From: Mobula hypostoma
Taxonomy: Eukaryota
DNA: 64,000 nt
Direction: 5' to 3'
Assembly (NCBI RefSeq): GCF_963921235.1
Contig: NC_086097.1
Span: forward strand, 83,330,001-83,394,000
The notes beneath the pieces are model-generated. The model ran no database searches and was not told the origin of the DNA. It worked only from the letters and a program-made list of their open reading frames with translations. Below, one piece after another: positions 4,701-48,764 of this stretch (its first letter is position 1; every line of letters begins with the position of its first letter). The position numbers were made by a program, and so were the translations under genes.

Positions 4701-7413
4701 AGAAACATAGAAAACCTTCAGTACAATACAGGCCCTTCGGCCCACAAAGCTGTGCCGAACATGTCCCTACCTCAGAACTTCCTAGGCTTTACTCACCTAG
4801 CCTTCTATTCTTCTAAGCTCCATGTAGCCATCCAGGAGTCTCTTAAAAGTCCCTATCATTTCTGCCTCCACACTGCCGCCGGCAGCCCATTCCACACACT
4901 CACCACTCTCTGCATAAAAAAAACTTACCCCTGACATCTCTTCTGTACCATCTCAGCCCTGGGGAAAAGCCTCTGACTATACACATAGTCTATACCTCTC
5001 ATTATCTTGTACACCTCTATCAAGTCACCACTCATCCTCCATTGCGCTAAGGAGAAAAGGCCAAGTTCACGCAACCTATTCTCATAAGGCATGCTCCCCA
5101 ATCAAAGCAACATCCTTGTAAATCTCTTCTGCACCCTTTCTATGGTTTCCACATCCTTCCTGTAGAGAGGTGACCAGAATTGAGCACAGTACTCCAAGTG
5201 GGGTCTGACCAGGGTCCTATATAGTTGCAACATTACCTCTCAGCTCTTAAACTCAATCCCATGGTTGATTAAGGCCAATGCACCATGCACTTTCTTAACC
5301 ACAGAGTCAACCTGCGTAGCAGCTTTGAGTGTCCTATAGACTCGGACCCCAAGATCCCTCTGATCCTCCACAAGAGTCTTACCATTAATACTATATTCTG
5401 CCATCATATTTAACCTACCAAAATGAACCACCTCACACTTTTCTGGGTTGACCTCCATCTGCCACTTCTCAGCCCAGTTTTGCATCCTACCAATGTCCCG
5501 CTGTAACCTCTGACAGCCCTCCACACTATCCACAACACACTCAACCTTTGTGTCATCAGCAAATTTACTAACCCATCCCTCCACTTCCTCATTCAGGTCA
5601 TTTATAAAAATCACAAAGAGTAGGGGTCCCAGAACAGATCCCTGAGGCACACCACTGGTCACTGGCCTCCATGCAGAATATGACCTGTCTACAACCACGC
5701 TTTGCCTTCTGTGGCAAGCCAGTTCTGGATCCACAAAGCAATGCCCCCTTGGATCCCATGCCTCCTTACTTTCTCAATAAGCCTTGCATGGGGTACCTTA
5801 TCAAATGCCTTGCTAACATCCATATACACTACATCTATGGCTCTACCTTCATTAATGTGCTTAGTCACATCCTCAAAAAAATTCAATCAGGCTTGTAAGG
5901 CATGACCTGTCTTTGACAAAGCCATGCTGACTATTCCTAATCATATTATGCCTCTCCAAACATTCATAAATCTTGCCTCTCAGGATATTCTCCATCAAAA
6001 TACCAACCACTGAAGTAAGACTCACTGGCCAATAATTTCCTGGGCTATCCCTACTCCCTTTCTTGAATAAGGAAACAACATCTGCAACCCTCCAATCCTC
6101 CAGAACCTCTCCCGTCCTCATTGATGATGCAAATATCATTGCCAGAGGCTCAGCAATCTCCTCCCTCACTTCCCACAGTAGCCTGGGGTACATCCCATCC
6201 AGTCCTGGTGACTTATCCAACTTGATGCTTTCCAAAAGCTTCAACACATCCTCTTTCTTAATATCTATATGCTCAAGCTTTTCAGTCTGCTGCAGGTCAT
6301 CACTACAATTGCCAAGATCCTTTTCCATTGTGAATACTGAAGCAAGTACAGTATTCATTAAGTACTTCTGCTATTTCCTCCAGTTCCATACACACTGTTC
6401 CACCGTCACACTTGATTGGTCCCATTCTCTTACATCTTATCCTCTTGCTCTTCACATACTTGTCGAATGCCTTGGGGTTTTCCTTAATCCTGTCCACCAA
6501 TGCCTTCTCATGGCCCCTTCTGGCTCTCCTAATTTCATTATTAAGCTCCTTCCTGCTAGCCTTATTTTCTTTTAGATTCATATCATTACCTAGTTTTTGA
6601 ACCTTTCATAAGCTCTTCTTTTCTTCTTGACTAGATTTACAACAGCCTTTGTGCACCACGGATCTTGTACCCTACCATTCTTTCTGTGTCTCATTGGAAC
6701 GTACCTACTCAGAACCCCATGCAAATATCCCCTGAACATTTGCCACATTTCTTCCGTACGTTTCCCTGAGAACATCTGTTTCCAATTTATGCTTCCAAGT
6801 TCCTGCCTGATAGCCTCATAGTTCCCCTTACTCCAATTAAACGTTTTCCTAACTAGCCTGTTCCTGTCCCTCTCCAACGCTATGGTAAAGGAGATAGAAT
6901 TGTGATCACTATCTCCAAAATGCTCTCTCACTGAGAGACCTGACACCTGATGAGGTTCATTTCCCAATACCAGATCAAGTACAGCCTCTCCTCTTGTAGG
7001 CTTATCTACATATTGTGTCAAAAACCCTTCCTGAACACACCTAACAAACTCCACCCCATCTAATCCCCTCACTCTAGGGAGATGCCAATCAACATTTGGG
7101 AAATTAAAATCTCCCACCACAACAACCCAGTTATTATTACCCCTTTCCAGAATCTGTCTCCCTATCTCCTCCTCAATGTTCCTGTTACTATTGGGTGGTC
7201 TATAAAAAAATGCCCAGTAGAGTTATTGACCCCTTCCTATTCCTAACTTCCACCCACAGAGACTCCGTAGACAACACCTCCATGACTTCCTCCTTTTCTT
7301 CAGCCGTGACACTATCTCTGATCAACAGTGCCATGCCCCCACCTTTTCTGCCTCCTTCCCTATCCTTTCTGAAACATCTAAAGCCTGGCACTTGAAATAG
7401 CCATTCCTGCCCC
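4701..7413 (-). mobile_element. CR1-clade LINE, 5'-truncated, ORF2 (APE endonuclease + RT) broken by frameshifts
   Basis: Minus-strand ORFs 7200-7391 (GFRCFRKDREGGRKGGG), 6590-7120 (VGDFNFP, LDLVL, SDH), 5873-6358, 5689-5886 and 5240-5734 (GVPQGSVLGP, KFADD). Tail (tttctatgtttct) at about 4701. Confidence 0.93.
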
Positions 7414-7720: not shown

Positions 7721-9329
7721 TAAGCTATTAATGTAAAAGCTGTATTCTCAGCATTTGCTCTTGGTTAGCTAACAAAGGCCACAGATATTGGTACAGTTTA
7801 ATCTGAGTAAGCTCCTGAGTATTGAGCTGTTCTCCCATTAAACTATGGCTGCAGTATAACAAGTGGTTAGAAAAAGAAAATCTAAAATAATTAATATCTA
7901 AGATGGATGTAGTCATTGAGAAAGATATTGCCAGTGGTTTTCATAACCATTCATTCATCTGTGTTTTAAGCAAGTGGAACGAAATGAATGATACAAATAT
8001 TGATGTAACCTACCATTACTCATTTTAAATGTTGAGGCATGATATACTACCTCTTGACAAACTATTGAGTTAAGTCTGATCTGGATACTTTTAAATCACA
8101 TGTATAATTGTGTAATTGTGTATTGACATAAGTATTAACAAGCCAGTCCACTTTTTCTCTGCAACTTAACTACCAGCAGCTGAACGTGTACTTGCAAGTA
8201 CATGTCCGATGTTACAGCAGACTGGTATTCTATAGAATAAAATATATTATTCTTTAAATATATTCTAAAATGAACTTACTTTTAAATGTTTCTGTTGCTG
8301 TTCCTTTAATGCCAAGGATGTGTGCTATTCATTCACTCAATTATTACAAATGGCCTTCCTATGGTGATTCTCATCCCAGTTATGAAGTTGTACAGCACAA
8401 GAAGTTGCAATTGTGTGTATTTATCATATTTATCAATGTTTCTAATATAAGACTTCTAAGACTTTTAGAAAGATAATGTCTCAAGTTTGGGACTGAGAAT
8501 ACCAATTATTTTTCAGCACATTATATTAGCGCTTTTGTTATTTTTAGACTGAAATATGATTGCATTGATATCCATTTTGAACACTCTAGGAATTGAACAA
8601 GTCCTTCATGGTTGCAAATGCACTTGAGTTCAATACTCTCTGCACATGGAATGGAAACGCCTGTGCAGTGTTCCTAAATATAGGCGTTAATTTAGTTAGA
8701 TCATATAGTTCTGAGATGTACCTGCTATTGCATTCTCTCAGAATAACAATATTTACATTAAAATCAAACTGTACTTTACACAGACCTTACAATCTTAGCA
8801 ACATATTGTACAGACAGGGGAGCTTGATGGTCTTAAGTGGCCACATTATTTCACCATTTCACAGAAAATACCTTTGTTTCAGTTATCATTCTCCACAACC
8901 ACCCCCCAACCGTCTGCTCTGCCACCTAGACTAATTTGTTTCTCTCTCTCTCTCCCAGTTTTGATGAAAGGTCTTTTACCTGCAATGTTAACTATTTCTC
9001 TTTCCACTGATGCTGAAGTTTTCCAGCATTTTCTATTTATATTGTTAATGTGCAAGTACCTCTCCTCCCCAATGTGGAGAGCAGGGAATACCACCATTTG
9101 GGTTGTTTCTTCATTTAGGTCAGCTACTCTTGCCTTGACCCCTGTTTTCGTGATGTTCCCTTCCGCCCATCCCCCGACTGAGTTTGTTGGATCTCGCTCC
9201 TCATTTGCCGACAAGCTAACTAGAACTAAGCTTGGTCGAGAGTTTGCATGATGTTTTGTTTCCAAGCTTGCTAAAGGCACAACGTGCAAAGAGAGATGTG
9301 TGCACACAAAATGCTGAAAGAACTCAGCA

Positions 9330-10330
9330 GGCCAGGACTTATGTCAGAGTACTGTTTCTGGATTTCGACACTTTTGTGTTGAAACAACAGTTTGCCATTC
9401 AGCACTTGCCCCACAGACCTTGGTGAACAAATTCATACTCAGCCTAAATATACCACTCTGCAACTGGGTGTTGGACTTCCTACCCTACAGGCCTCAGATA
9501 GTCAGGCTGCACAACCACTCCTCCTTCCCCATCACTATCAACCCGTATCTCCCCTGGGCTGTGTGCTGAGCCCGCTGCTATACATTCTGCTCACATACGC
9601 TTGCATGGGCAAATACCTGAGTAATCACATTGTCAAGTTCGCTGATGACAAGGCAAAGGTGGGGCTCATCACCAACAACAATGATAGACGGCCAGCAGAG
9701 AGGAGGCAAAAGAGCTAGAGGCCTAGAGCCAGCCAGACGAATAACCTCTTCCTTGATATCAACAAGATGACAGAAATCCGAGCAACACACACAAAATGCT
9801 GGAGGAACTCAGCAGGCCAGACTGCATCTAAGAAAAGCGAACAGTTGACGTTTCAGGCTGAGGTCCTCCAGCAGGACTGGAACCCTTCAGCCCGAAACAT
9901 CAACTATACTCTTTTCCGTTTTTGTTTGTTTGTGATATGATAAAGGAGATAACTTATTGACTTCAGGAGAATTTGCACCACTCACACCCCTCTTTACGTC
10001 GACAGCACAGCAGTGGAAACTGTAAGCAGTTTCAAACTCCTAGGAGTGCACATTTCATGCAACCTCTCATGGTCCCAAGACACATCCTATACATTAGGAA
10101 AGCTGCCTCTACTTTCTGAGGAGGATGAAGAGAGCTGGACTTCGCACATCCATACTCAGCCATTATACAGGTGTGCAGCAGAGAGCATCCTAACGTGCTG
10201 CATTACTGCAAGGTACAGAAACTGCACAGGAAGGCTCTGCGACAGGTCGTCAAAACTTCCCAATACATCACCTGCACCAGCCTACCCACCCTCAAGGACA
10301 TATATACAGAAAGGTGCCAGAAAAAGGCCA
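9330..10330 (+). mobile_element. Degraded Rex1/Babar-like LINE RT region, interrupted at about 9780-9920 by a Penelope-like terminal fragment
   Basis: ORFs 9392-9718 (PLGCVLSPLLYILLT...IVKFADD) and 10013-10423 (VSSFKLLGVHISCNLSWS). Confidence 0.75.
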
Positions 10331-10344
10331 ATAACAGGAGTCAG

Positions 10345-10633
10345 TAGTTACCTTGACTACAGCCTTTCCCTCCCTGTCACTTGCAAGGCTGCTGTTCCCT
10401 TATCTTCACCAACTGCTCCATGAGCCTCTGTGTCCAGCACATCATTCTCCTTAACTTTCACCATCTCCAACATGAATGCCACCACCTGGCACATCTCCTC
10501 CTCTCTGCCTTCTGGAGGGACTGTGCTCTCTGTGACTCTCTTGTCTGCTCATCCTTCCTGACAAACCCCCACCAGGCACTTATCCCCATATAAGTGTTAC
10601 ATCTTCCTCTATACCTGTTCCCTCACCATTCCA
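10345..10633 (+). mobile_element. Penelope-like element fragment, left part; continues at 13068-13420 after the CR1
   Basis: ctcaccattccagg | aaacagtccttccag..gagacag..ttcacctgtgaatc reads as a continuous GIY-YIG-region PLE (FTCES..VIYC.RCSRCG). Ends in a pLTR-like motif near 13335-13420. Confidence 0.6.
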
Positions 10634-13067
10634 GGATTTCTTGGAATGTATGTGGGATGGTTTTTTGAACCAACATGTCGAGGAACCAACCAGAGAGCAG
10701 GCTATTCTGGACTGGGTTTTGAGCAATGAGGAAGGGTTAATTAGCAATCTTGTCGTGAGAGGCCCCTTGGGTAAGAGTGACCATAATATGGTGGAATTCT
10801 TCATTAAGATGGAGAGTGAAATAGTTAATTCGGAAACAAAGGTTCTGAACTTAAAGAGGGGTAACTTTGAAGGTATGAAACGTGAATTAGCTAAGATAGA
10901 CTGGCAAATGACACTTAAAGGATTGACGGTGGATATGCAATGGCAAGCATTTAAAGGTTGCATGGATGAACTACAACAATTGTTCATCCCAGTTTGGCAA
11001 AAGGATAAATCAGGGAAGGTAGTGCACCCGTGGCTGACAAGAGAAATTAGGGATAGTATCAATTCCAAAGAAGAAGCATACAAATTAGCCAGAGAAAGTG
11101 GCTCACCTGAGGACTGGGAGAAATTCAGAGTTCAGCAGAGGAGGACAAAGGGCTTAATTAGGAAGGGGAAAAAAGATTATGAGAGGAAACTGGCAGGGAA
11201 CATAAAAACTGACTGTAAAAGCTTTTATAGATATGTAAAAAGGAAAAGACTGGTAAAGACAAATGTAGGTCCCCTACAGACAGAAACAGGCGAATTGATT
11301 ATGGGGAACAAGGACATGGCAGACCAATTGAATAATTACTTTGGTTCTGTCTTCACTAAGGAGGACATAGATAATCTTCCAGAAATAATAGGGGACAGAG
11401 AGTCCAGTGAGATGGAGGAACTGAGCAAAATACATGTTAGTAGGGAAGTGGTGTTAGGTAAATTGAAGGGATTGAAGGCAAATAAATCCCCAGGGCCAGA
11501 TGGTCTGCATCCTAGAGTGCTTAAGGAAGTAGCCCAAGAAATAGTGGATGCATTAGTGATAATTTTTCAAAACTCGTTAGATTCTGGACTAGTTCCTGAG
11601 GATTGGAGGGTGGCTAATGTAACCCCACTTTTTAAAAAAGGAGGGAGAGAGAAACCGGGGAATTATAGACCGGTTAGCTTAACGTCGGTGGTGGGGAAAC
11701 TCTGGAGTCAGTTATCAAAGATGTGATAACAGCACATTTGGAAAGCGGTGAAATCATCGGAGAAAGTCAGCATGGATTTGTGAAAGGAAAATCATGTCTG
11801 ACGAATCTCATAGAATTTTTTGAGGATGTAACTGGTAGAGTGGATAGGGGAGAACCAGTGGATGTGGTATATTTGGATTTTCAAAAGGCTTTTGACAAGG
11901 TCCCACACAGGAGATTAGTGTGCAAACTTAAAGCACACGGTATTGGGGGTACAGTATTGATGTGGATAGAGAATTGGTTGGCAGACAGGAAGCAAAGAGT
12001 GGGAATAAACGAGACCTTTTCAGAATGGCAGGCAGTGACTAGTGGGGTACCGCAAGGCTCAGTGCTGGGACCCCAGTTGTTTACAATATATATTAATGAC
12101 TCAGACGAGGGAATTAAATGCAGCATCTCCAAGTTTGCGGATGACACGAAGCTGGATGGCAGTGTTAGCTGTGAGGAGGATGCTAAGAAGATGCAGAGTG
12201 ACTTGGATAGGTTGGGTGAGTGGGCAAATTCATGGCAGATGCAATTTAATGTGGATAAATGTGAAGTTATCCACTTTGGTGGCAAAAATAGGAAAACAGA
12301 TTATTATCTGAATGGTGGCCGAATAGGAAAAGGGGAGGTGCAACGAGACCTGGGTGTCATTATACACCAGTCATTAAAAATGGGCATGCAGGTACAGCAG
12401 GCGGTGAAAAAGGCGAATGGTATGCTGGCATTTATAGCAAGAGGATTCGAGTACAGGAGCAGGGAGGTACTACTGCGGTTGTACAAGGCCTTGGTGAGAC
12501 CACACCTGGAGTATTGTGTGCAGTTTTGGTCCCCTAATCTGAGGAAAGACATCCTTGCCATAGAGGGAGTACAAAGAAGGTTCACCAGATTGATTCCTGG
12601 GATGGCAGGACTTTCATATGAAGAAAGACTGGATGAACTGGGCTTGTACTCGTTGGAATTTAGAAGATTGAGGGGGGATCTGATTGAAACGTATAAAATC
12701 CTAAAGGGATTGGACAGGCTAGATGCAGGAAGATTGTTCCCGATGTTGGGGAAGTCCAGAACAAGGGGTCACAGTTTGAGGATAAAGGGGAAGCCTTTTA
12801 GGACCGAGATTAGGAAAAACTTCTTCACACAGAGAGTGGTGAATCTGTGGAATTCTCTGCCACAGGAAACAGTTGAGGCCAGTTCACTGGCTATATTTAA
12901 GAGGGAGTTAGATATGGCCCTTGCGGCTACGGGGATCAGGGGGTATGGAGGGAAGGCTGGGGCGGGGTTCTGAGTTGGATGATCAGCCATGATCATAATA
13001 AATGGCGGTGCAGGCTAGAAGGGCCGAATGGCCTACTCCTGCACCTATTTTCTATGTTTCTATGTTT
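10634..13067 (+). mobile_element. Young CR1 LINE, 5'-truncated in the endonuclease; RT intact apart from one frameshift
   Basis: ORFs 10641-11726 (ILDWVLSN, SDHN, KSPGPDG, NYRPVSLTS) and 11723-12973 (QHGF, YLDFQKAFDKV, GVPQGSVLGP, KFADD, RTRGH). Tail tttctatgtttctatgttt at 13049-13067. Confidence 0.96.
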
Positions 13068-16029: not shown

Positions 16030-16907
16030 TACAGCATATTGCTTGTAGATTTAAAAAATTGCAATGTCTGTGTTTATGTAGATGTAAAACTTTTCACCCT
16101 TTAATTTGATCATCATCTTCAGCTGAAAGAATAACACTTTACTGTTCAGACAAGCAAATCATTTAATATAATCTTCACAAGACTCCCAAAATTTCTAAAA
16201 ATATAGCTGGCTTTTGCACTTCAGAGAGCATTGTCAATTGAAAATGTCACAAGACTTTGCAACTATTGCAGGAATGTTACTTTGGGGCAACGTTGGAGCT
16301 CAAGATTCAAATGGATTTAAGATGCAAATCTTTTCAAGAATGTATGTTCTCTAACAGTTTCCTTACTTGAGGTTCTGTCTCTACAAATCATAGAAACTTA
16401 GAATAGTGTACTGGCTCCCATACGCCATTGCAGAGTTCTCTACACAATGTTGTCTTTGAATTGTAGTCAGGTCTCTCCAAAATTGTTTAGCTATAAAAAT
16501 CCCTAATATCTAAAATTTAACTACGATTGTGCATATTAAACTTCTGGTAGACTTGTACTCTCTGCTCCCAGCTCAACTAAAAGGGGCCTAGAGATTTTTA
16601 CACCTGAGATAGATATTTATGTGCCCTTGATTCTTACAAAACTATGAAGAGTCTGGGCTGATATTTCCAGCAGCATAGATATAATACAAATGGCATTTGG
16701 AAGAAATATTACTTTACTTTCAGTTATACACGTCTCTGGCCCTCAATATTAATACCGAAGTTTATTGTCTTTTTATCAAACTTGATTATCTCAATCTAAA
16801 TTAGTGAAAATATTATAACCCAGTATTAAAATTGATATTGTATATTGCAATTGCATTACAGTTCAGTAAGATTAATCATCTTGCATTGCTTTTTTTCCAT
16901 TATTTAG

Positions 16908-17150
16908 GGGAAGAATTGGACTGTTCCACTGAGCACTGCCCAGTGCAGTTTGAATCTCTTTGCCCTGAGGATTCGGTACTTGTCAAAGGATACACACGAC
17001 CAGGACAGTGCTGCCCAACGCCTAGTGTCTGCCAGTGTAATAAGGAAACCTGCAAAGAAAAGGACTGTCCTTTTGGTCACCAGCAGTTTCTGCTTTCGGA
17101 AGCGACAGGAATACCAGGAGAGTGCTGTGATGTGTACGAATGCAGACCAG
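16908..17150 (+). CDS. CRIM1: CRIM1-like internal coding exon (equivalent to CRIM1 exon 3), cysteine-rich region
   Basis: Pyrimidine tract plus ttttAG acceptor at 16906-7 and GT donor at 17151. 243 bp, phase 1/1. Encodes EELDCSTEHCPVQFESLCPEDSVLVKGYTRPGQCCPTPSVCQC...GIPGECCDVYECRP, matching the CRIM1 CPEDSVL...PGECCP...PGECCDxYECKP pattern. Confidence 0.9.
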
Positions 17151-18389: not shown

Positions 18390-19918
18390 CAGTGCCTATA
18401 AAAATAAAATTCACCCCCCCCCCAGAAGTTTTCATGTTTAATTGTTTTACAACATTGAATCACAGTGGATTTAATTTGGCTTTTTTGACACTAAACAACA
18501 GTAAAGATTCTTTTGTGTCAAAGTGAAAACAAATTTCCTACAAATTGGTCTAAATTTATTACAATTATTAAACACAAAATAATTGATTGTATAATTACTC
18601 ACCCCTTTCAAGTCAGTATTTAGTAGATGCACCTTTAGAAGCAATTACAGCCTTGATTCTGTGTGGATAGGTCTCAATCAGCTTTGTACACCTGGACACT
18701 CCAAATTTTCACCATTCTTCTTTACAAAACTGCTCAAGCTCTGTCAGATTGCATGAGGGTCATGAATGAGCAGCCCTTTTCAAGTCCAGCCACAAATTCT
18801 GAATTGGATTGTGGTCTGGACTCAGATTCGGCCACTCCAGGACACTAACTTTGTTGTTTTTAAGCCATCCTGTGTAGCTTTGGCTTTATGCTTGGGGTCA
18901 TTGTCTTGCTGGAAAACAAATCTCCCAAGTCGAAATTCTCTTGCAGACTGCTTCAGGTTTTCCTCCAGGATTTCCCTGTTTCTTACTGCATTCATTTTAC
19001 CCTCCACCTTCACAAGCCTTCCAGGGCCTGCTGTAGTGAAGCATCCCCACAGCATAATGCAGCCATCTCCATGCTTCAGGGTAGTGATGCTGTGTTTTTG
19101 ATGATGTGCGGTGTTTGGTTTATGCCAAACATAGCGATTAGTCTGATGACCAAAAAGACCATAGAACCCACATGCCTTCTGGCAAACTCCAGCTGAGATT
19201 TCATGTGATTATTTTCCAAAAGTGGTTTTCACTTTGCCACTCACCCATAACGCTGTGATTGTTGAAGCACCCGGGCAACAGTTGTTGTATGCACAGTCTC
19301 TTCCATCTCAGCCACTGAAGCTTGTAACTCCTCGTTGTAACTAGTCCCCTTCATGCACAGTCACTCAGTTTTTGATCTGCCTGCTCAAGGCAGATTTACA
19401 CCTGTGCCTTATTTTCCCCATTTCTTGATGATTGACTTAACTGTACTCCAAGGCATATTCAGTGACTTGGAGATTTTCTTATATCCATCTCCTGACTTGT
19501 GCTTTTTAATAGACTTCTTGTGGAGTTGTTTGGCGTGTTCTTTTGTCCTCATGATGTAGTTTTTGCCAGGATACTGACTCACCATCAATTGGAACTTCCA
19601 GATTCAGGTGTAGTTTTACTACAAACAATTGAAACACCTTAACTGCACACGGTGATCTCCACTTAACCAATTGGCTGCACCAGTGATGATTTGGTGTGTC
19701 ATATTGAAGGGGGTGAATACTTATGTAACCAATTATTTTGTGTTTTATATTTGTAATTAAATTAGATCACTTTACAGAGATCTGTTTTCACTTTGACGCC
19801 AAAGTCTTCTTCTGTTGACCAGTGTCAAAAAAGCCAAATTAAATCCACTCTGATTCAATGTTGTAAAACAATCAAACATGAAAACTTCCATGGGAGGTGA
19901 ATACTTCTATAGGCACTG
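18390..19918 (-). mobile_element. Tc1-family DNA transposon with long (~220 bp) IR/DR-type TIRs; transposase is pseudogenised
   Basis: TA|CAGTGCCTATA ... TATAGGCACTG|TA. The TIRs (about 18390-18612 and 19704-19918) are reverse complements. Minus-strand remnants include MLWGCF..GPGRL, FVFQQDNDPKH and [16 protein letters not shown]. Confidence 0.93.
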
Positions 19919-22127: not shown

Positions 22128-23647
22128 CAGTAATCCCCAACGGGGGCAGTTATGTGCCCCAAGGGGGCGTTAAGGAAATAGAAGTCGCTGGGGGGCATTC
22201 AAGATCCTTGGGAGGCAGGGGCAGTAAACAGCACCCTAACTTGAGGCACGAGACCTGACCGACCTTGTCAACTCACTGCCATCGTCAACATCCAGTAGGC
22301 ATTCCCAGTTTGAATTAATGTTTTATTTTAGTTTAGTCCCGTTAATGATGGATAAATACGTACGGCATGATCTATGAATGTGAAGGCGGTGTAGCCTTAA
22401 ATTCTAATCCTGCTAGGGAACAGAAGCGACAGAAAGTACATCAATACAATGTTACATACCAGGAGTGTGGTTTTATTATGTTCCCGTCAGTTCAGCGATG
22501 CACCAAGCGTCTTATCTGTAATACTGCATTGTCTAATGAAGCCATGAAACCATCAAGTTTGCCGGAACACTTCTGCCAAAGCCACCCTGTAAAAGCTACT
22601 TTTGGTATTACTCAGTTCCAGAGGATGAAAGAAGCATTTGAAAAGTGTTGCACACTCAAGTCGTTTGCCAAGAAAGCTAAAAATGACCTTGATAGTGGTC
22701 GCATTGACTCTTATAACATTTCCAAAAGGATAGCCAAGTGTGGAAAATCTCATACAATTGGTGAAAGATTAATAATGTCTTCTGTATCAGACATGCTCAC
22801 CACTGTTCTCAAAATGGATACCAGTATTTTAAGCAACACACCTAAAAGTTGCTGGTGAACGCAGCAGGCCAGGCAGCATCTCTAGGAAGAGGTACAGTCG
22901 ACGTTTCAGGCCGAGACCCTTCGTCAGGACTAACTGAAAGAAGAGCTAGTAAGAGATTTTTACAGATGGTGATTTGCAAGAGTACTGCTTACATCAGTTG
23001 TCATTGAAGAAGGATTTTCAGAATCAATTCAAGGATTTGAATGATCTGGAAATTCTGGGCTGGGTAATTAACCCATTTCTTTGCGAGATGGAAGAACGGA
23101 AGAGAACTTGCAAGAAGATATTATCGAAATTCAGAATGCTGAAGAATGCTTTTCAAGAATGCCGGCTTTTGTGGTATGTGGCTACACTGTCATATGCAGT
23201 TTCCTGGCTTTTGAAGAAGAACCAAACTGCTCCTCATTGCATTTCCATCCTCCTACATTGTTGAAAGAGGCTTCAGTGCAATGAACCACATACTCACAAA
23301 AACACAGAAACCACTTGGACATTGTTACACTTGGGGACTTGAGGCTTTTGCTAGATATTTCAACTCTTGCTAAAAACCATCAAGCTCAAGGATCACATTG
23401 ATATTGAAGCTGTTGTATAGCACACAGGTACTGTGTAAGCTAGGTTTAAAGACAAATTAAATTTTAAAGCAGAACAATTTTTCTCGTGTTAGCATATGGT
23501 AGACATGTTTTTACACTTTGGGCGTGCCAGAAAGTATATTGTGCCTCAGAGGTGCATTGGCAAGTATGAAGGTGATTTGCGGGGGGCACTGGCAAATATG
23601 AAAGTGTTTTAGGGGTGCATTGGGCTAAAAAAGGTTGGGAAACACTG
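22128..23647 (+). mobile_element. hAT (Buster/Charlie-like) transposon, internally deleted
   Basis: TIRs CAGTAATCCCCAAC and GTTGGGAAACACTG. 8-bp TSD acttaata/atttaata (7 of 8 match). ORF 22367-22858 has BED-like LICNTALSNEAMKPSSL..H and IAKCGKSHTIGERLI. C-terminal remnant WVINPF. The central catalytic region is missing. Confidence 0.88.
22896..22931 (-). ncRNA. Minimal type I hammerhead ribozyme motif in a Penelope-like terminal fragment (about 22832-22958)
   Basis: The minus strand reads AGUC-CUGACGA-AGG-GUCUCGG-CCU-GAAAC-GUC-GACU: stem I AGUC/GACU, core CUGANGA, stem II AGG/CCU, GAAA, GUC triplet. Confidence 0.8.
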
Positions 23648-28555: not shown

Positions 28556-28772
28556 TATTTGTTAAGTTGGCTGCAACAAATTGCCACGGTAGAGTAGCAT
28601 TTAAAATGGGAAGGTTCTGTAAAACTTGCAGGTTGAGGAAAAACTGTGAACCATCTGTTACTGGACACCCCTTTGACCAAATACTGCATTTCAGATGATG
28701 CTTAAACACAGTTGAGGAAAGACTTCATGAAGTCAGCCCTTGTAATTGATATGTTCTCTTTTTTAATTGCAG

Positions 28773-28955
28773 AAACCACTCGCAAGTGTCTGTTTAATGG
28801 CACTGAGTACACAGATGGAGAGGTGTATCGCATGGAGGCCTGCTGGTTCTGCCGCTGTCGGGGTGGGATCTCATTATGTTCCAAAGTAGAATGTGGAGAG
28901 CTGAAATGTGAGAACTATTACATCCCTGAGGGAGAGTGCTGCCCAGTTTGTCAGG
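28773..28955 (+). CDS. CRIM1: CRIM1-like coding exon, first VWC (chordin-like CR) domain (exon 6 equivalent)
   Basis: ttgcAG acceptor at 28771-2 and GTAAG donor at 28956. 183 bp, phase 1/1. Encodes TTRKCLFNGTEYTDGEVYRMEACWFCRCRGGISLC...PEGECCPVCQ, with VWC CxxCxC and CCPxC motifs. Confidence 0.92.
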
Positions 28956-31444
28956 GTAAGTTTCCATGGACAGGAATGAAGGTCGAGATTATAAACTGGT
29001 GCCTCCAGCTAAAAAATAAGCAATCACCCGGTATATGTTGCATTTAATTTACATTGTTCATACACTGTATAATCTAAGTCTTTGTCTTGGTCTAGCAGTG
29101 ATTTACGAGATGGCCACTGGCAATAGTTTCAGAAAATGAGCAGATGGTATAATTCATCACTAACCTGAAATAATTCTGCATTAATACATAGCCAACGAGA
29201 GAATCCTTCATGCCATGTAATATTGATAAAAGAAAGGGACATCTTTAAATGTAAAGGCTGCGCTCTGTCCTTTGGGAATATGGCAAGGTTGTACAAGAAA
29301 GAGCAGAAGTTGGCTCTTGTGTCATCTGTATTTGTGGCATGTGGAATGTATTAAATACAGTTGATTACCCCACAGCAATATCACAGATGGCTAGAATTTG
29401 TTGTGCATATGCATCAACTTTCAACTAGAAATGGATCACTTCTGACACCTTACAGTGTTAAGTTATGAACAGAAGCAACCATGGAATTAAAATCTGGCAT
29501 ATCACTGTCAATGCATGCACAAAAAAGAACAAAACCTGCCTGTTTTTATACTTAAAATTAATTTATGAAATTGTGTTTGTGGTACATTTGGTTATAAAAA
29601 TGCTGTTTATTGAAAAATTACCAAATGGTTCTGTCCTAATTTGGAGGTTAAAAAATTGTAAGTTGCAATTTTGCATGACACCCAGAAAGCAAAAGTAAAT
29701 TTTGTAATTGATATTTCTCTCAATTAATAATTTGCAGTACTTCCCTTTTTATGAAAAAAAGGAGTTCTTCTAAGCCAATCATTTTGGAGAATTTTTCTTC
29801 CTTGCAGTATTTTGTATTTATTCATAAATTATGTCTACAGAGCATTTCAGGATAATGTACCCTGAATACTTAACTTAGTGCAAGATTAAGACCAAGGAAT
29901 TCTCCAAGCAAGTTGCCTTTATCCCACAGTCTGTCCCTTTCATTCTGTTCTGATTCAGCATGTCAACCCAAAGCATCGATTTGCACCTTTTGCCTCCACA
30001 GACACCGCTTGACTCACTGAGTTCATCCCATGCTCTTTTTTTGCTTTATATATACAATCCAATATCTACAATCTCTTTTTTATCTTCATTTAATCTTTAA
30101 AGACTGGTTAATATTTGTGAACTACATATGGAAAGTATACAAATATTTCCAATCTTTACAAATTTAGGCACTTAGATTTATTCAGAAATGAAATAACCAT
30201 GTGTGGCACCATGGTTGTCATAGAAACCTTGAGCCAAGTGGCCTGTTTCTCTGCGGTACTGTTTTATAGTCCCATGACAAATACGAAATGCAAGCAATAT
30301 AGGCCAATTAATACAAACGGAAAACAATCTAAATCTTGTGAGTAGGATCTTTAGATCATGGGCCTACAGGCTACTGTCTGGATGTCTTACATGTCATTCA
30401 ATATGCAGAAGCCATAAATTATGCTTACTCAGCATCCCCACTTTAAATGTTATATCAAAAACAATGTAATAAAATTATGAAGTTCTCTTTCAGACAAGGC
30501 TGACATGTTAACAAAGCATAACGGCAGTCCTGGAACATCTCAGCACCCTAACTTAAAGATATTGATTCATGTCCTCTATTAGTTACGTCCTAGTCTTGGA
30601 TCTGTTCTAGGCTTTCCATTTGTGTTATCATTGTTCACGACAAAATCTATTTTTGTCCTTTTTTTGTGATTTTTAAAAACACTACTTATACTTTCTCACT
30701 GTATTTTTCCTTCCAGTGTTTGTACAATCACTGCCAATGTGGGTAAATATCGGTCCTTGGCTTAGTATTTCTGGCCTATTTGCCTTGCAACATTGCCATA
30801 AGTTATAAGTGTGGTTGTCATTCAATGTGCTTACCATTAGCCCACAGCTTTACTTCTGCTCTTCTATTCTTGATTCTATGACAACTTTTGTTGATAGACT
30901 CTATTCTTTTTTTTAAACAACTGAACATCTTCAAAACCATTTCTAGTGAGGTATCCTGGACCTAAAAAGTTAACTGTTCCTGTTTCCAGCATTCCATTTG
31001 AATTCCATACGCCAGCCGCTAATCCCCTTCACTCCCATGATGCCCTGCTCTAACTAGGGCTTGACGATGAGCAGCACATACAGCAGACATCAGTCTCTGA
31101 TCTATTGTCTTCCTCCAAACCTCCCCTTCATTCACTGCCAAAGGATTTCTCATGAATGCTGTTGGCTCCAGCATTTCCGGTCCACTGTTTAGTTGTAAGC
31201 ATGCTCCTGAACTATTAGTCACTTCTCATTCTACTTTGCTGCACCAGTCCCTATTTGATAATTGTTCCTGGTATCCTGTACTTATTTCTAGGAGTCTTAA
31301 TGACACCGTAGCACTTTTAACTGAGAGTTTTAACCTTTCAGACTCAATGTTAAGTTCCATAATTTTAGATTGCAACCACTCTCCCTAATTTCTAGTCCCC
31401 AGATAGCAGCTGCTTAGAATGATTTTCCTATTCCCATGTGCTCT

Positions 31445-32870: not shown

Positions 32871-35800
32871 TGTTATAAATATCACATAGGGGATCAAATA
32901 ATGAAGTCTGACTACTTTTTAGTAATGGCAATCAAATTGAATGGTCAAGTCAAGAATCTGAGCCTTGGGTTTTAAGGGAGTGATCATGTAAAATAAATTT
33001 CAGAAACAATGTGTTAGGTTATAGCTCACATAAACTTCATAAACATTTAACTTTCATCAGATTTCAGTCACTATCTGATGTCAAAACTGATTTTTTTTAA
33101 CATTATCATTTTGCCCTTCATGATGTTGCAACAGAAAGCTGATGTTTTCTGCAAAGACTTGTCCTGATGAGAGATGAGAAATTCTGTTTATTGTTCCATT
33201 TTACTTTACATAAAATACATATCTTGAATGCCACATACTACAGGATCTTCCCTTTTGCAGTTTGAACCAATGCACAAAAGAAATGCTGGGAGCTTTTCCT
33301 TAAGCATTCAGTGAAATGTAACAAACCATATATCAGTAATTTTCATGCAATTGTGATCACAGTCTAGAAATACTACACAGTCAGTCAACCATCATTTGTC
33401 ATCATAAAACTACAAATAATGTGTTGCTTGATTAAAAACTTCTTGTGTTGGTAGCATTTATTCAAAACACCAGTGCTCAGGATTTTGGTGGTGTTGGATT
33501 AGCAGACTTTCTGAACTGCTGGGTGTAATTCCTATTAATACCTTAACCTATTTTAATACACGTTTTTGTTGCACAGTATTATAATACAACTCCATGCGTG
33601 CCCAGTAATTTTAAGGTGAGTGCAGGGACCAGGGTCCTAGTGAGTTGGAGAAAGCACAAAAAGGGAAACCCTAGTTATCCAGAAGACAATATGGGAATCA
33701 GAGCCTGGTGTGTCAGAAACATCACCCGATCACTGAACAATCACTAAATCATCAAGTAGAGGGTTACCTCTAAATTAAACTTTGGCCTCTGATATAACTT
33801 GGCAGCTTTAATAATTAAAGAAATGATATTATAAGGATCTATATGTGAGAAATATGAAAAATGGTGTTGAGCAAATATTGAATTAAAGGGGATGGACTAC
33901 TGAGCGTTCCAGTAGTGGCAATGAATATAGCTTGGGAAGGAAACTTGTCCATGAACAATCACAATAAAGTATTTGGACTCATTGAAAGAATGGAAGTTGC
34001 CAGCGTACTTCTCATGGCTCAGTACCTGGAACATGAACTTGAAGAAGGCTAATATGCGATTGGTTAGATGCTATTTAGTGAATTGTCACAGAAGATGACT
34101 GAATTAACCTTGGTGACCCAGAACAGGCAATAGTGTGGACTCATTCCATTCACTCATTACTGCTGAGCTGGATAAGATGGAGTGACCCTATCATATTCAT
34201 TCAGGGAGTAGAATCAAGGAGACTTTTAAAATGCATCAAGTGAAAATAATGAGCCAGAACTTGTTATCTGGGCAAGCTGCCCACTCCCACTGTGTGACTT
34301 GCGTACCAGCTATGGACTTGATTGTTCCAGATGTCAGTCTGCTGCCTGAAGCTGTCCGTAACCAGAATGGCAAACCTCTTCAAGGCAGCAGGGGCTTGAG
34401 TGGCATGGCGTTGTCATGAGTGGAAGCAGTAAAAGGAGGCAGAGCAGACTCCGCCCTTTCAACAGTTGAAAACGTTTGGCAGCTTCGAAATCTATGCCAC
34501 CAGATTATTCCAGCTGAGCAGGACACTGAACATTTCAGAATGCCCTCGATATTCAGAAGCGTTCAAACAATCAATAAAATAATTATACAAAGAACATCCA
34601 TTTCAAGCATGGGTTTCTGGATGGGTTTCATAAGCCAGTCAGAGAAATCGAACAGCACCATCCCTGTGTCGAACAGGATCAAAATGAATGACTGAACATC
34701 ATGCTGAAAAAAGTGCTTCAATCTCCTAGAGATCCAAAGCATGACCAGCCAGGATCAACAAGACATACACCTACAGAAGGAACAAGGTGAAGTTCAAAAG
34801 ATGAAAATGAGGAAAAAGATGATGAACAAGGTGATGAGGGACAAGTGTCTTTTCAGATTATTGCTTAAGATACCAGGGATGACCTCTTTAATGCAAGGTT
34901 TTCTTGAGTTATACCAGAAGATCCGAATAACAAGAAAATGCAAGAGCTGTTCTTCCCCGTCTCTCACTCCAAACCCCACAGGCAGTGATAAAAATCAGTC
35001 CTTGCAAGTAATCTTGAACCTGCTACACTGTTGGTCTCAGTAAAGGGAGAAAACAGAAAAATGGTGAAAAAACCATACATAACGTATCTGAACAACTGAA
35101 ACACATTAACAAAGCACCTTCTTACAATCCCTGAATATATTCTTGATTTTCCTGCAACTCCAATAATAAAATCTGTGTGGCTTCAGCAGTGGAGGGTGGT
35201 GCTCAGAGTGACCACTGTGTCCTGGAGCCGATAGTACCCTGCCAAAGGTTGTTCTGCTTGCACTTGCGCAGATGCTGACATCTGGGGATGAAGCCAAGTG
35301 ATTGAATTTGAAGGGTGTTAGTAGGAATGTGGGGGAAATTTGTAAAATGGAATTGATATTGGACGGAGAAATGAGTGGATGACCCAAGACCCCAAGGACC
35401 TGTTTTTGTTCAGTTTGTGGGACTGGAAATCCAAGTGGCTGTGAATAACACACACAAGAGATGGAGAGATGAGGAACAAATGTGTAGCTGTTTACTTCAC
35501 TTGTAAGTCATCTACCCAGAACGCTCTCTCACATTATGTTCAGTACGTAACACACAGAGAAACTTGAGTTACCCATAAGAGTCAAAGTATACATGAATAC
35601 ATAATATATCCCAACCCCTTATTTTAACGGTTTCTCCCCCTTCCCCTACCAGACCAAGTGCTGAACTAATAACATTCAATGGCATAATCATCAAATTCAA
35701 CCAACAACAAAAACATTTTTTTCCAAGCTATTGTAGGAAAAGGGAGTAGACTGCCTCTATTCCTAAATATAACCCCAGAGATTATTTTGCCCCACGTGCT

Positions 35801-39338: not shown

Positions 39339-39518
39339 ATTGATTTTATTTAACCATTGTGTTCTCATTCTCTACCCTCGGATTCTTCACTCACCACACT
39401 TCCGAAGGCCATTTTCAAGCAACCAACAAGAATTCTGCAGATGCTGGAAATTCAAGCAACACACATGAAAGTTGCTGGTGAACGCAGCAGGCCAAGCAGC
39501 ATCTGTAGGAAGAGGTGC

Positions 39519-39554
39519 AGTCGACGTTTCAGGCCGAGACCCTTCGTCAGGACC
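39519..39554 (-). ncRNA. Minimal type I hammerhead ribozyme motif in a Penelope-like insert (39424-39555)
   Basis: The minus strand reads GGUC-CUGACGA-AGG-GUCUCGG-CCU-GAAAC-GUC-GACU; the core is identical to the 22896 copy. Confidence 0.8.
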
Positions 39555-39801
39555 TTTTTCAAGCAACACCTTCTTTTTGCTCACCTGCATTACACAGTGG
39601 TACACTACCGGCATTGCACACCAAAGGGAACAAAACAATAAATATCACATGAAGACTTATCAATTAGTCACCAGTTGTTATGTTTGTGGTACCGGGAAGC
39701 CGATTGACCGTGAATTACACACACGAGAGACGGGGAGGTGAGGAACAAATGTGTGGCTGATTATTTTGCTTGTAAGTCATCCACCCAGAATGCCTTCTCA
39801 C

Positions 39802-42904: not shown

Positions 42905-43290
42905 GGTCAAAGTTCAAAGTAAATTACTTGTATGTCACCATATACAACCCTATAATTCATTTTTTTACAGGTATGCTCAATAAATCCAATAGCCATAATA
43001 GAGTGAATGAATGTCCAAACCCCAACAGGGAGGTCAACCAGTGTGCAAAAGATAACAAACTCTGCAAATACAAAATAGAAAAAGAAGAAATAATAATAAA
43101 TAAATAAGCAATAAATATCAAGAACATAAGATGAAGAATCCTTGAAAGTGAGTCCATAGGTTGTGGAAACTGTTCAGTGATGGGGCAAGTGAAGTTATCC
43201 TAACTGGTTCAAGAGCCTGATGGATGAGGATTAATAAATGTTCCTGAACCTGGTGGTGTGAGTCCTGAGGCTCCTGTGCCTTCTTCCTGG
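42905..43290 (-). mobile_element. Rex1/Babar-like LINE 3' fragment
   Basis: Closely similar to 46050-46460 (tatgtcaccatata.aaccct..attcat...tgagtccataggttgtgg). Confidence 0.75.
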
Positions 43291-44154
43291 TGGCCGTAAT
43301 GAGAAGAAGTCAATCAGAAGTCCAGAATTCAAGACCTGATGTTCAAAGCCCTGAGCCTGTGAGTCCACGGGGGAAGTCAAAGGCTTCTGCAATGTCTGCA
43401 AGTCACGAGTCCATTGGTGGTTGGACAGCTGGTATTGGAGTTGAAAGATTGACTATGTGTGTGGATATGTTGATGTCTGGTGTGAGGAAGGAACTGGACT
43501 TGCTTTGCTGTTGTTGTTTTGTTGTTGTTCTGCTGTTGTTGCTGCTGTTGCTTATGTTATTCTGCAAACATGGTGGACGTGTTGGGGCCAGAATGCATGG
43601 CAACACTTGTGGAATACCCCCACTGTAATCTTAGTGGTTGTTAACACAAACAACACATTGCACTGTATGTTTCAATGTACATGTGATAAATAAATGAATC
43701 CAAACTTGAATGTAGAGTGAACTATGCTTGACAATGATTATACTTCACACAGTTGAAGTTGTATCATCTTGACTGGTATATGATGTGAATGATGGACGTT
43801 TAGTTGTGTTGCTGGGATGTCTTCAACTTCATTCCCAAGGTCAATGAAACACTATCAACCTTCATTGCTGTCTCATCTAATTTGTAGCTGCATAATTGCA
43901 GATGCAATCTTCCACCTCTTTCTTTCTTTGTGATGTTGTCTGCAATAAAGAATAGAGCCATGAGCATCGTAATGTGCATGTAACCTGATGTGTGAAATTG
44001 ATTTGGTGAGAATGGAAATGAGTTAAAGGCAAAGCACTGAGAGCTAGTGGGAATGATCAATGGATTTGTTTCTTAAAGATTTAAGGAGAAGGATGTGTGT
44101 ACATCTTGCGTAAGTAGATGTGGAAAATGATAGGAGAAAGTTTGAGTCTAGGGT

Positions 44155-44662
44155 AACAAACACGAAGTGCTGGAGGAACTCAGCATGTCAGGCAGCATCT
44201 ATGGAAATGAATAAGCTGTCGTCGTTTCATACCGAGACCCTTCTTCAGTACTGGGAAGTAAGGGGGAATATGCCAGAATAAAACACTAGGGGGAGAGGAA
44301 GGAGGATAGCTAGAAAGTGATAGGTGAAGCCAGGTGGGTAGGAAATATAAATGGCTGGAGAAAAAGGAATCTGATAGGAGATGCGAGTGAACCACGGGAG
44401 AAAGGGAAGGAGGAGGGGATCTGGGGGGGGGGTGGTGATAGGCAGGTGAGAAGAGGTAAGAGGCCAGAATGGGGAATAAAAGAAAAGGGGAGGGGGAGGG
44501 AATTTTAACCGGAAGGAGAAATTGATATTCAGGCCGCCAGGTTGGAGGCTACTCAGGCGGAATATAAGATGTTGCTCCTCCACACCTAGGCACAAGAGGA
44601 GATCGGGACCGACATGTCGGAATGGGAATGGAAATCGGAATTAAAATGTTTGGCCACTGGGT
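44155..44662 (-). mobile_element. Penelope-like element 3' fragment (GIY-YIG C-terminus plus terminal repeat with a mutated hammerhead)
   Basis: ORF 44245-44595 has EEQHLIFRLSSLQPGGLNINFS. The terminal motif ctgaagaagggtctcggtatgaaacgac is on the minus strand. Confidence 0.8.
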
Positions 44663-45294
44663 CTAGGTTGATGCACACGGCAGTACATGAAATTGTATGG
44701 ATGAATTTACAGAGTAGTACAAGCCAGTTTACAGTTCAGTTTCTTATTTGTATACATGAATATTCTCTTATAGAAGTATAACATGTCTTATCAAAAACAA
44801 CTTAATTTTCTTTCCATGAGCAAGCATGGACTAACCTTTAAGCTCTGTATTCAGCCTTACAAAATCCATTAGAAAGAAGATAATAATGACAAACTTTCCC
44901 AAAGGAATGATAAAATGGGCTGATGCTCTGATGCTGAACTGGTCCCTTTCTGAACTCACAAGCAATGTGACTGATTCGGCTACCACAAAGAAATGTTAGT
45001 GCTGCTTCGTTTCATTTACAATAAGCATAACAGCAAGAAATGCCATATTTCTGTGGGAAAACCAAAAGAAGCGAAATATTGGTAAACCCAGGAGATTCTG
45101 CAGATGCAGATACTGATGCTGGAAATCTAGTGCAGCACACATAAGATGCTGGAGGAAGCTGAGTTACTGCTTGGTTTTATTCTAAGAAGTAATATCAATT
45201 AGAGAAATATACATGCAAATCCATAACTGCAGACATTTCAGAATTCTACAACCAGAAAGGGAAAAAAAGTAATTTTCCAGGCTTTGCAGAGAAA

Positions 45295-46049: not shown

Positions 46050-47385
46050 GAAGTAAATTTATTATCAAAGTATGTGTATGTCACCATATATAACCCTGAG
46101 ATTCATTTTCTTGCGGGCATTTGCAGTAAGTACAAGAAACAGAATAGAATTGATGAAAGACTGCACCCAACAGGACGGACAAACAACCAGTGTGCAAAAG
46201 ACAACAAGCCATGTAAATACAGACAGAAAAGAAAGAAAAAAAAGAGAAATAATAAATAAACAAATAAGCAAGCAGTAATTGTCAAGAACATGAGATGAAT
46301 TATGCTTGAAAATGAGTCCATAGGTTGTGGGAACAGTTCAGCGATAGTGTGAGTGAAGTTGGGTGAACTTATCCCCTTGGATTCAAGAGCCTGATTGTTG
46401 AGAAGTAATAGCTGTTCCTGAACCTGGTGCTGTGAGTCCTGCAGCTCTTTACCTTCTTCCTGATAGCAGCAGCAAAAAGAGAGTATGGCCTGGGTTGCGG
46501 GGGTTCTTGATGATAGATGCTTCTTTCCTGCAACAGTGCTCAGTGTAGATGTGCTCATTGGTGAGGAGGACTTTACCTGTGATGGACTGTGCCATATCCA
46601 CTCATTTTTGTATGCTTTTCTATTCAAGTGATGCAGCCAGTCAATGTGATCTCCACCACACATCTATAGAAGTTTGTCAAGGTTTTAGATAACATGCCAA
46701 ATCATTTTAAGCTTCTAACACTGTAGAGGCACTGCCATGCTTTCTTCATAATGGCATGTGTGCTGGATGCAGGACAGAGACTCTGAAATAATAACGCTGA
46801 AGAATGTAAAGTCGCTGACCCACTCCACCTCTGATCACTGGCTCATGGACCTCTGGTTTTCTCCTCCTAAAGTCAATAATCTGCTCCTTGGTCTTGCTGA
46901 GATTGAGTGAGAGGTTGTTGTTGTGGCACCACTCAGCCAGGTTTTCAATCTCCTTCCTATATGCTGATTCGTCACCATCTTTGATTTGGCCTACAGTAGT
47001 GGTGTCATCAGCAAACATAAATATGGCATTGGAGCTGTGCTTAGCCTCACAGTCATAAGTGCAAAGCGAGTAGAGCAGGGGACTAAGGACACAGTTTTAT
47101 GATGCACCTGTGCTGATAGAGATTGAGGGGGAGATGTTGTTGCCAATCCGAACTGACTGGGATCTGCAAGGTGAGAATCCGGTTGTACAAGGAGGTATTG
47201 AGGTCTCAGTCTTAAAGCTAATTGATTAGTTTTGAGGAGGTGACAGTATTGAATACTGAGCTGTAGGCAATGAAGGACATTCTGATGTAGGCATCTTCAC
47301 TGTCCATGTGCTCCAGAGTTGAGTGAAGAGCCAACAAAATGACATCGGCTGTGGACTTGTTGTGACAGTAGGCAACCTGATGGTC
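46050..47385 (-). mobile_element. Rex1/Babar-like LINE, RT to 3' end, degraded
   Basis: Minus-strand ORFs 47218-47439 (STADVILLALHSTLEHMD..YIRMSFIAYSSVFNT) and 46746-47018 (FADDTTTVG..DESAYRKEIENLAEWCHNNNLSLNLSKTKE). Confidence 0.88.
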
Positions 47386-48396
47386 ACTGTCAGTCCCCTG
47401 GGTTGCTCGGCTGGCTTCTTTACGAAGCCAATGATCCAAGTGAACCTCTGAAGCTTCTCAACCATTGTTTTCAGAAACCTACCCTCTGAACTTGCACTTG
47501 CATCAAATCCAATTGCATGGCACGGTTGTGAGGGAGGTTTCAAGTAAAGTTGAACCGAGCACCCCTGTTCCATCTAACTGGGGGATTAGTCAAGGAAGAG
47601 TGGACATAGTCCCATAGAAATTCCAGACCATGGGATTTGCTGCTTGCAATATGTTCTCCTGTACATTGGGAAGTTCAAGTGCAGCCTGACTGATCTATTT
47701 GCTTCCAGTTGAAAAATTGACTTTGTGCTTCTGACAACTGGGCTCTTCAGTTCTCTGGTCCATTATAATCTCTGCATCATGGTCCTCCTATTCTAATGAA
47801 ACTGAAAGGAAGCTTCAGAAGAAACATCTACACCCTTCCCTCCACCCTTTCAAATGAGCACTCTATGAGCTCAACATTGAGTTGACAATTTCTGCTCTCA
47901 ACGCATGCTCCAAGACTCTCGCAGAGCAGAAGTTTGGAATCAGTCTGCTCTGCACACTCCCACTTCCTCTCCATCCTTTCTTGTTTCGTTGCCATGTCAG
48001 AATGTTCCTTTGACTCTAAGTGCCATCTTTTTCTATGTCAAATCATCCCTGCTATCCGCCCTAACATAGGCACACCATGTTGTCCTTATCACCACTGCAC
48101 CCACTGACCACATCCCACCCTGCCCCTGGAAGTGAAAAATCTTACATATATAAAACTATGCAGTTCTGATGAAAGATGGTTGACCTGAAACTACACCTTT
48201 GGCAGGCTGCCCAAAAGCCCCATTCATGAAAATTGCTGAAGAAAATATTTCGAAGCTGATCAAACCACACGGTCCAATTTAGCCATGTGTCAAAGCTGTG
48301 AAACACTGCCAGAAATGCTGTAGAACAATTCTCTTTTTTTAATTTAGAATACTGTACCACAACACAAAGAAAGCTAATTATAGTAGCACATCAATG

Positions 48397-48546
48397 CACA
48401 CAAAATGCTGGAAGAACTCAGCAGGCCAGGCAGCATCTATGGAAAAAAGTACAGTCGACGTTTCGGGCCATGGTCTCAAAAGCATCAGCTGTACTTTTTT
48501 CCATAGATACTGCCTGGCCTGCTGAGTACCACCAGCATTTTGTGTG
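48397..48546. repeat. Inverted duplication (hairpin) of the Penelope-like terminal repeat
   Basis: cacacaaaatgctgg..actcagcaggccaggcagcatctatggaaaaaagtacag pairs with ctgtacttttttccatagatactgcctggcctgctgagt..ccagcattttgtgtg. Confidence 0.9.
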
Positions 48547-48764
48547 TGTTGCTCAGATCTCTTCTTTGTGAAGATACCACGTACTTGAATCCCACATGAC
48601 CATTCTCTGCTCTTAATGAGTGAAAAACTGTCCGCACATTGTCTGGCCTGGTACATATTCTTCATGTGGACCGCTGTTCCACTGCTGCAAATTTTGCACT
48701 GTTGAGAACCAGCAGTAAACAGCTTCCAGCATGTTTTGTGCACATGTACAAATAACCCCAAATC

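Follow-up and report, generated by a model that had tools for sequence, protein, structure and literature searches.

A genuine minimal type I hammerhead ribozyme motif occupies minus-strand positions 22896-22931 of the 64,000-nucleotide stretch of Mobula hypostoma DNA analysed here (hereafter the window). The most probable reading, to which we assign a probability of about 0.86, is that these 36 bases are the pLTR hammerhead of a Neptune-type Penelope-like element (PLE), that the copy which carries them is a dead, inert, 5'-truncated end, and that the RNA of the parent element would cut as a dimer with the help of protein. This kind of motif has been known since 2014, when minimal hammerheads (min-HHRs) were described in the pLTRs of metazoan PLEs, including the Xena, Poseidon and Neptune elements of fish (Cervera and De la Pena 2014, PMC4209133), and the ray family is a further member of it. 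The flagged copy alone adds little, as it is one more decayed end piece. The family, however, is abundant in a vertebrate and has young subfamilies that differ at a single stem II position (11.1), which would give statistical power to tests of the hammerhead's role that use genomes only.

The hammerhead motif and its second stem

The motif reported in the first-pass annotation matches the minus strand letter for letter, and the core boxes CUGANGA, GAAA and UH are all present in type I order. Stem I pairs 22931-22928 with 22899-22896; the four base pairs that had been claimed for it are all Watson-Crick, and one further U.G pair (22895/22932) extends it. Proceeding along the minus strand, the CUGACGA box (C3-A9) lies at 22927-22921, the stem II region at 22920-22908, and the GAAA box at 22907-22904, in which GAA represents G12-A14 (22907-22905). 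The ACGU palindrome (A15.1-C15.2-G16.2-U16.1) spans 22904-22901 and is followed by C17 at 22900; cutting is predicted at the 22900/22899 junction. C15.2 and G16.2 are adjacent, with no loop to separate them, and stem III is therefore impossible within one molecule. The palindrome permits stem III pairing between two motifs. All four CpGs of the 36-mer have been kept.

Two checks had been suggested for this reading, one with Rfam and one with a structural descriptor, and they gave different answers. The descriptor, whose requirements are the two core boxes, a minimum of 3 bp in each of stems I and II, a self-complementary segment and UH, matched three times in the 64-kb window, always on the minus strand (cores at 22927, 39550 and 56448). 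Dinucleotide shuffling gave 0.0075 matches per shuffle, with 3 of 400 shuffles containing any match; two of the three observed matches are sister copies and hence not independent. Among the Rfam matches, on the other hand, none was to a hammerhead family, whether at E<=1 over the whole window or at E<=10 over 22860-22970, although the motif is real. Each Rfam search returned two weak matches that are unrelated to the hammerhead, and mir-2131 falls on an inverted pair of copies described below. The folding energy of the motif region is not unusual (z of -0.49 and -1.24), and exact-pattern scans for relatives found none in metagenome contigs and none in viral contigs.

Stem II can be drawn in two registers. 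The 3-bp stem of the first-pass annotation corresponds to A-U/G-C/G-C, which is a possible register, but folding slightly prefers another, in which an unpaired A precedes G.U/G-C/G-C/U.G (hairpin energies of -2.5 against -2.2 kcal/mol, with a probability of 0.96 for the G.U pair). The A concerned, at 22920, has no partner in the favoured fold, yet is able to pair with U11.1. Position 11.1 (22908, minus strand) is U in the flagged copy and C in part of the related copies. Where it is C, the A at 22920 must be unpaired, and the stem then consists of three G-C pairs and a U.G pair, with G10.1-C11.1 restored. This G10.1-C11.1 pair is absent from the flagged copy and present in the family.

The frequency of the two forms was obtained from contigs of 4 of 24 public runs (X1, X5, X9 and X15), which were aligned to 22600-23200 and contributed 86,590, 54,267, 19,520 and 3,997 aligned records. 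C at 11.1, seen as A>G on the plus strand, makes up 32%, 37%, 67% and 24% of depth in X1, X5, X9 and X15, respectively. Among 40 of the 142 rows of differences, 22908 is the sole difference inside the 36-mer. Within the window, one of eight aligned copies has C11.1 (the copy at 48450-48469). U11.1 is probably a subfamily trait, because both sister copies carry it while keeping their other CpGs, and because the organism designated C, which is nearly without the subfamily (depth of 688 at 22831-22851), mostly has C at this position. Independent decay of a CpG was judged less likely.

Covariation was assessed in 8 of the 10 window copies (48468-48562 and 53960-54080 were omitted as truncated or too decayed), and the observed scores of the two stem II registers were reached by 439 and 128 of 500 shuffles in this set of only eight decayed copies. 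The free core position N7 is C, A or U among copies of the repeat. It had been proposed that a lack of excess conservation of core over loop positions among genomic copies would refute the ribozyme. Such a comparison would be misleading because dead copies decay neutrally, and subfamily masters are the right material for it.

The repeat family and the endonuclease end

The motif sits in a dispersed repeat, for which the first-pass annotation had given a size of about 130 bp and about ten copies or remnants. Both estimates hold. The flagged copy measures 129 bp by contig ends (22831-22959), and the window contains eight copies by blastn, ten by nhmmer (query included) and roughly 13 copies or remnants when three short ones recognised by eye are counted (~9301-9336, 45100-45160 and 52400-52430, all on the minus strand). 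The sister copy at 39424-39555 (minus strand) is 90% identical, begins at stem I, and has a complete core and a 30-nt tail; a 12-bp direct repeat lies on either side of it (39412-39423 and 39556-39567). An older, diverged copy at 56365-56455 (minus strand) has U at N7 and still matches the descriptor. The remaining copies are decayed: those at 8945-9050 and 58290-58410, both on the plus strand, have broken cores, one lies at 53960-54080 (minus strand), and another, at 9770-9920 (minus strand), has a short inverted 5' piece near 9880-9920. At 48392-48553, two 5'-truncated copies are joined head to head within the stem II region. The copies are thus dispersed monomers or inverted pairs, and no tandem array of the ~130-nt unit was found in the window. 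The inverted pair at 48392-48553 forms a long hairpin with a weak microRNA-like score in Rfam (E of 0.024, far below gathering).

A longer and older copy at 44150-44700 (minus strand) connects the repeat with a coding sequence. Its hammerhead, at 44217-44252 (minus strand), has decayed, and it keeps an endonuclease end, a stop and a pyrimidine-rich UTR of about 260 nt. Upstream of the pyrimidine-rich stretch, a frameshifted frame reads PVAKHFNSDFHSHSDMSV ... EEQHLIFRLSSLQPGGLN, then stops. The endonuclease end (~44660-44515, minus strand), which by motif match is a frameshifted GIY-YIG C-terminus of Neptune type, lies on the same strand as the hammerhead copy and reads PVAKHFN..HS and EQHLIFRLSSLQPGGLN, followed by the stop; of the ORF, no more than the C-terminal ~55 aa remain. 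Its H..H and E..N blocks match those that Craig et al. 2021 (PMC8557442, Fig. S2) show for Neptune endonucleases, namely Penelope1_XT, Neptune1_Nv and Neptune-1_Ac. The spacing from E to N is that of Neptune1_Nv and Penelope1_XT, whereas the Poseidon rows of the same figure are shorter. A single E-N pattern is present in the window, against none in 200 shuffles; the H..H pattern by itself turns up often in shuffled sequence (0.45 per shuffle).

Database searches with the short endonuclease pieces were less informative. The pieces (32-44 aa) had no match in Pfam or PDB, a homology search with them returned one candidate and none that scored, and the best ESM Atlas value (0.80) was uninformative. 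P0001, the sole match of a representative search, is a repetitive adhesin-like protein of 5,539 aa without the PLE motifs searched for and was rejected as a summed-repeat artefact.

Since the copy at 44150-44700 retains its connection to the endonuclease C-terminus, the repeat is read from its sequence as the 5'-truncated 3' end (pLTR) of a PLE and not as a stand-alone module. The parent element probably belongs to the Neptune clade; the PLE and Neptune assignments are both based on motif match to a published alignment, not on phylogeny. The proposal of a minimal type I PLE hammerhead with a palindromic, zero-loop stem III thereby gains a PLE link within the window itself. The idea that the repeat is a mobile module of its own has fared less well, as relatives continue past 22959 and one window copy keeps the end of the ORF. 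The window contains no full-length parent PLE, and neither motifs of the RT and the linker Zn-finger nor those of the N-terminal part of the endonuclease occur in it. Further PLE marks in the window are the optional 30-nt tail and the inversions at 48392-48553 and 9880-9920, and a direct repeat (12 bp) surrounds one of the six insertions checked. Optional tails, inverted 5'-truncated copies and a short TSD have all been described for PLEs (PMC11167929, PMC8557442, PMC3846280).

The PLE end repeat is very abundant. In X1, depth rises to 1.5e7 on the repeat and is 2e3-3e4 in the flanking sequence, itself multi-copy; contig depth is here a sign of abundance and not a copy number. Related copies run beyond 22959 into a common purine-rich upstream sequence (agreement of 0.59-0.69), and extend before 22831 into the tail also carried by the sister copy at 39424-39555. 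Measured from the cut site, the 3' end lies at 69 nt in the flagged copy and at 99 nt in the sister, the 30-nt difference being the optional tail. No pile-up of ends at the cut site was seen among 24 of the 1,415 rows of loose ends. In a few contigs of X1, X5 and X9, the 35-38-nt hammerhead is directly duplicated in tandem (window positions 22893-22931), an arrangement that would permit an intramolecular double hammerhead.

Alternatively, the ~130-nt unit could stand on its own as a non-autonomous element, namely a SINE-like or monomeric, retrozyme-like master with its start at stem I, whose transcripts the PLE enzyme would copy in trans. The sister copy has the shape expected of such an element, since it begins at stem I, ends with a tail and has the 12-bp direct repeat on both sides; the few tandem duplicates of the motif point the same way, as does a preprint that derives non-LTR retrozymes from pLTRs (bioRxiv 10.64898/2026.07.22.740005). 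Loose ends at 22929-22931 are, moreover, the largest 'behind' class among those listed in the four runs (281, 306 and 869 records in X1). However, agreement is low at these ends (0.32-0.42), which are partly similar to the purine-rich sequence upstream in other subfamilies and may therefore mark subfamily divergence from the query. The flagged copy itself includes 28 nt beyond stem I on the upstream side, and its relatives extend further (499 records at 22959 in X1, agreement of 0.65), other copies in the window have varied 5' ends, one of which reaches the ORF, and the unit forms no tandem array there. Taken together, these observations make a short master unlikely and argue for the truncated end of a PLE.

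The insertion, its host gene and the prospects of cleavage

The whole insertion (22831-22959, minus strand) is a 129-bp, 5'-truncated, tail-less pLTR 3' end, delimited by contig ends and a step in depth. Host-like contig pieces end at 22832 and restart at 22958, records that resemble the repeat show loose ends ahead of 22831 and beyond 22959, and at each junction host and repeat overlap by 2 nt. The sequence of the 22828-22832 junction is AT-rich and directly preceded by ATT; no target duplication was found at the junctions. The host is a decayed hAT/Buster-type transposase of the FAM200C-like kind. Its left part (22349-22832, plus strand) corresponds to the N-terminal ~160 aa and is 68-69% identical to a stingray FAM200C-like protein, in an alignment that reaches 22831. 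The right part (22958-23400, plus strand) was read by eye, through a motif, as the frameshifted C-terminal region of a hAT transposase; it had no match in Pfam. The middle of the transposase is missing exactly at the PLE insertion, and no clear hAT terminal repeats were found around the host element. This FAM200C-like host is itself multi-copy in related genomes.

At the sister copy, 12 nt of the flank (39556-39569) are identical to the 3' region of the element (39451-39462, minus strand) and overlap the target duplication, which may reflect homology-guided targeting or chance. Priming of insertions by long microhomology is unsupported, since the flagged copy has only 2-nt overlaps. An empty site for the 39424 copy was sought at 35100-35700 and not found.

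The entire window appears to lie within a CRIM1-like gene, with plus-strand exons at ~16835-17149, 28769-28966, 50175-50447 and 63617-63772 (best match of 94% to a stingray protein). The flagged motif is intronic and antisense to this gene, between the exons at 16835-17149 and 28769-28966, and the nearest possible partner motif is at least 16.6 kb away. All three complete motifs are antisense to the host gene, and the plus-strand copies have broken cores. Counted by eye, nine single-strand insertions are on the minus strand and two on the plus strand, a difference that is not significant (two-sided binomial p of ~0.07, by hand). An antisense bias is common among intronic retroelements. A more far-reaching proposal would have the young ray subfamily be a self-standing, ribozyme-headed mini-element of ~130 nt that starts at stem I, has exchanged the conserved G10.1-C11.1 pair for the U11.1 form and stays locked, its core paired to the cleavage site, until the PLE protein or a second copy opens it; its copies would lie in most introns, and sense copies would cut pre-mRNA in trans and be purged, leaving an antisense bias. 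This proposal is improbable.

Reading the insertion as a truncated PLE end, a course of events can be proposed from published work on PLEs. An intact element would be transcribed from tandem copies, and two motifs in the parent RNA would pair through ACGU, form a double hammerhead and be cut after GUC. The RT-endonuclease would nick AT-rich DNA and start reverse transcription internally on the RNA, downstream of the hammerhead, either ~69 or ~99 nt beyond the cut. Early stops of synthesis would be usual and would leave end pieces of 100-500 bp, sometimes inverted. The flagged copy would then be a young, dead-on-arrival end piece that stands in place of the middle of the hAT transposase, and most likely does nothing at the locus.

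Cutting of the dimer would be slow and would probably require help from the protein of the element, as the core of the monomer is predicted to fold onto the cleavage site, C15.2-G-U-C17. In the predicted monomer fold, G5-A6-C7-G8 pairs with C15.2-G16.2-U16.1-C17 (pair probabilities of 0.98-0.99), and the same pairing is predicted in the sister copy and in the copy with U at N7 at 56448. The modelled double hammerhead, in which 22 of 22 pairs are standard, has an energy of -11.5 kcal/mol, whereas two monomers reach -22.0 and the best dimer -30.3; nearest-neighbour energies ignore the tertiary contacts of hammerheads, and the lock may thus be overstated. The predicted lock fits the weak activity of published PLE min-HHRs even as dimers (PMC4209133) and the protein-assisted cleavage of the PLE hammerhead from Anolis (PMC11167929).

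The opposite view of the flagged copy is that it is functional, and that an antisense transcript cleaves in trans with other copies and thereby affects CRIM1 or antisense RNA. An intact core, four retained CpGs and a wealth of potential partners are compatible with this. Nevertheless, the copy is antisense to the host gene and shows no sign of conservation (the best of the listed public runs contains 0.47 of the locus's words, and no aligned piece spans the locus). No RNA run is listed for the locus; X15 may be one, and its depth profile was left aside. The weakness of published min-HHRs as dimers and the predicted monomer lock also speak against function, and ends at the position of the cut are lacking in RNA-seq of PAc, the Poseidon element of Anolis (Frangieh et al. 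2024, PMC11167929). A function at the locus is consequently regarded as very improbable. Least credible of all is a chance hammerhead-like string in an unrelated repeat: the lack of an Rfam match, the ordinary folding z-scores and the absence of a covariation signal in eight copies would suit it, but there are three descriptor matches (two of them sister copies) where 0.0075 are expected, the free core position N7 varies among copies (C, A or U), and the motif sits where PLEs are known to carry a hammerhead (PMC11167929, PMC8557442).

Relation to known elements

The truncated PLE end resembles the PLE min-HHRs of Cervera and De la Pena (PMC4209133). Both are type I, with a full core, a helix I of 4-5 bp, a palindromic 15.2/16.2 in place of a helix III loop and, in the preferred fold of the flagged motif, an extra A after A9. 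The PLEs described there also occur mostly as solitary copies of truncated elements, with some inverted pairs. The published min-HHRs leave one base unpaired after A9 and keep, typically though not absolutely, the G10.1-C11.1 pair, whereas the flagged subfamily has U11.1 and closes with G.U or A-U; helix II has 3-4 bp in the flagged motif and 7-8 bp in Schistosoma. No shark or ray is named in the passages and two supplement files of that paper that were searched. Diminished stem III and cleavage as dimers are likewise features of the PLE hammerhead variants of Lunse, Weinberg and Breaker (via PMC6765202).

Among individual elements, PAc (PMC11167929) is alike in that a pLTR hammerhead lies shortly upstream of the 3' end of the insertion, and it shares the optional tail and the AT-rich target. 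It differs in clade, being a Poseidon element, while the endonuclease end found here is Neptune-like. The 3' ends here lie ~69 and 99 nt after the cut, compared with RT starts at 85-92 nt in PAc (a value obtained by subtraction from the published positions). Cleavage of PAc has been demonstrated, is assisted by protein and is dispensable for insertion in vitro (PMC11167929).

Neptune-clade PLEs (PMC8557442) share the C-terminal GIY-YIG end with H..H and E..PxGLN blocks, the succession of a 3' UTR and then the HHR, and inverted 5'-truncated copies. Naiads have similar blocks, but their endonuclease is N-terminal and canonical hammerheads are absent. The same paper calls the in vivo role of PLE hammerheads unclear.

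A preprint reports pLTR-derived animal non-LTR retrozymes, along with HHR-bearing repeats and PLEs, in one cartilaginous fish (Chondrichthyes; bioRxiv 10.64898/2026.07.22.740005). These retrozymes resemble the ray repeat in having a type I HHR in pLTR-derived repeats. Retrozymes are, however, defined as tandem units that each have a complete HHR (bioRxiv 10.64898/2026.07.22.740005), while the copies described here are dispersed monomers or inverted pairs and, by this definition, are not retrozymes. No description of this ray PLE family was found in the literature searched, which included few subscription papers and had Repbase and Dfam outside its scope. In the one paper found that mentions shark together with the hammerhead ribozyme and Penelope, 'shark' refers to the origin of the name.

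Several other mobile elements are present in the window. LINE remnants with RT or endonuclease domains lie at 5240-7222 (minus strand), 10536-12973 (plus strand), 46746-47096 (minus strand) and 48956-49501 (plus strand), and the one at 10536-12973 retains two long open frames of 396 and 431 aa. At 18416-19897, inverted arms (86 nt, 90%) enclose a weak DDE_3 match, which is probably a Tc1/mariner remnant. Lastly, 42921-43273 and 46067-46447 are two related copies of another repeat, ~3.15 kb apart.
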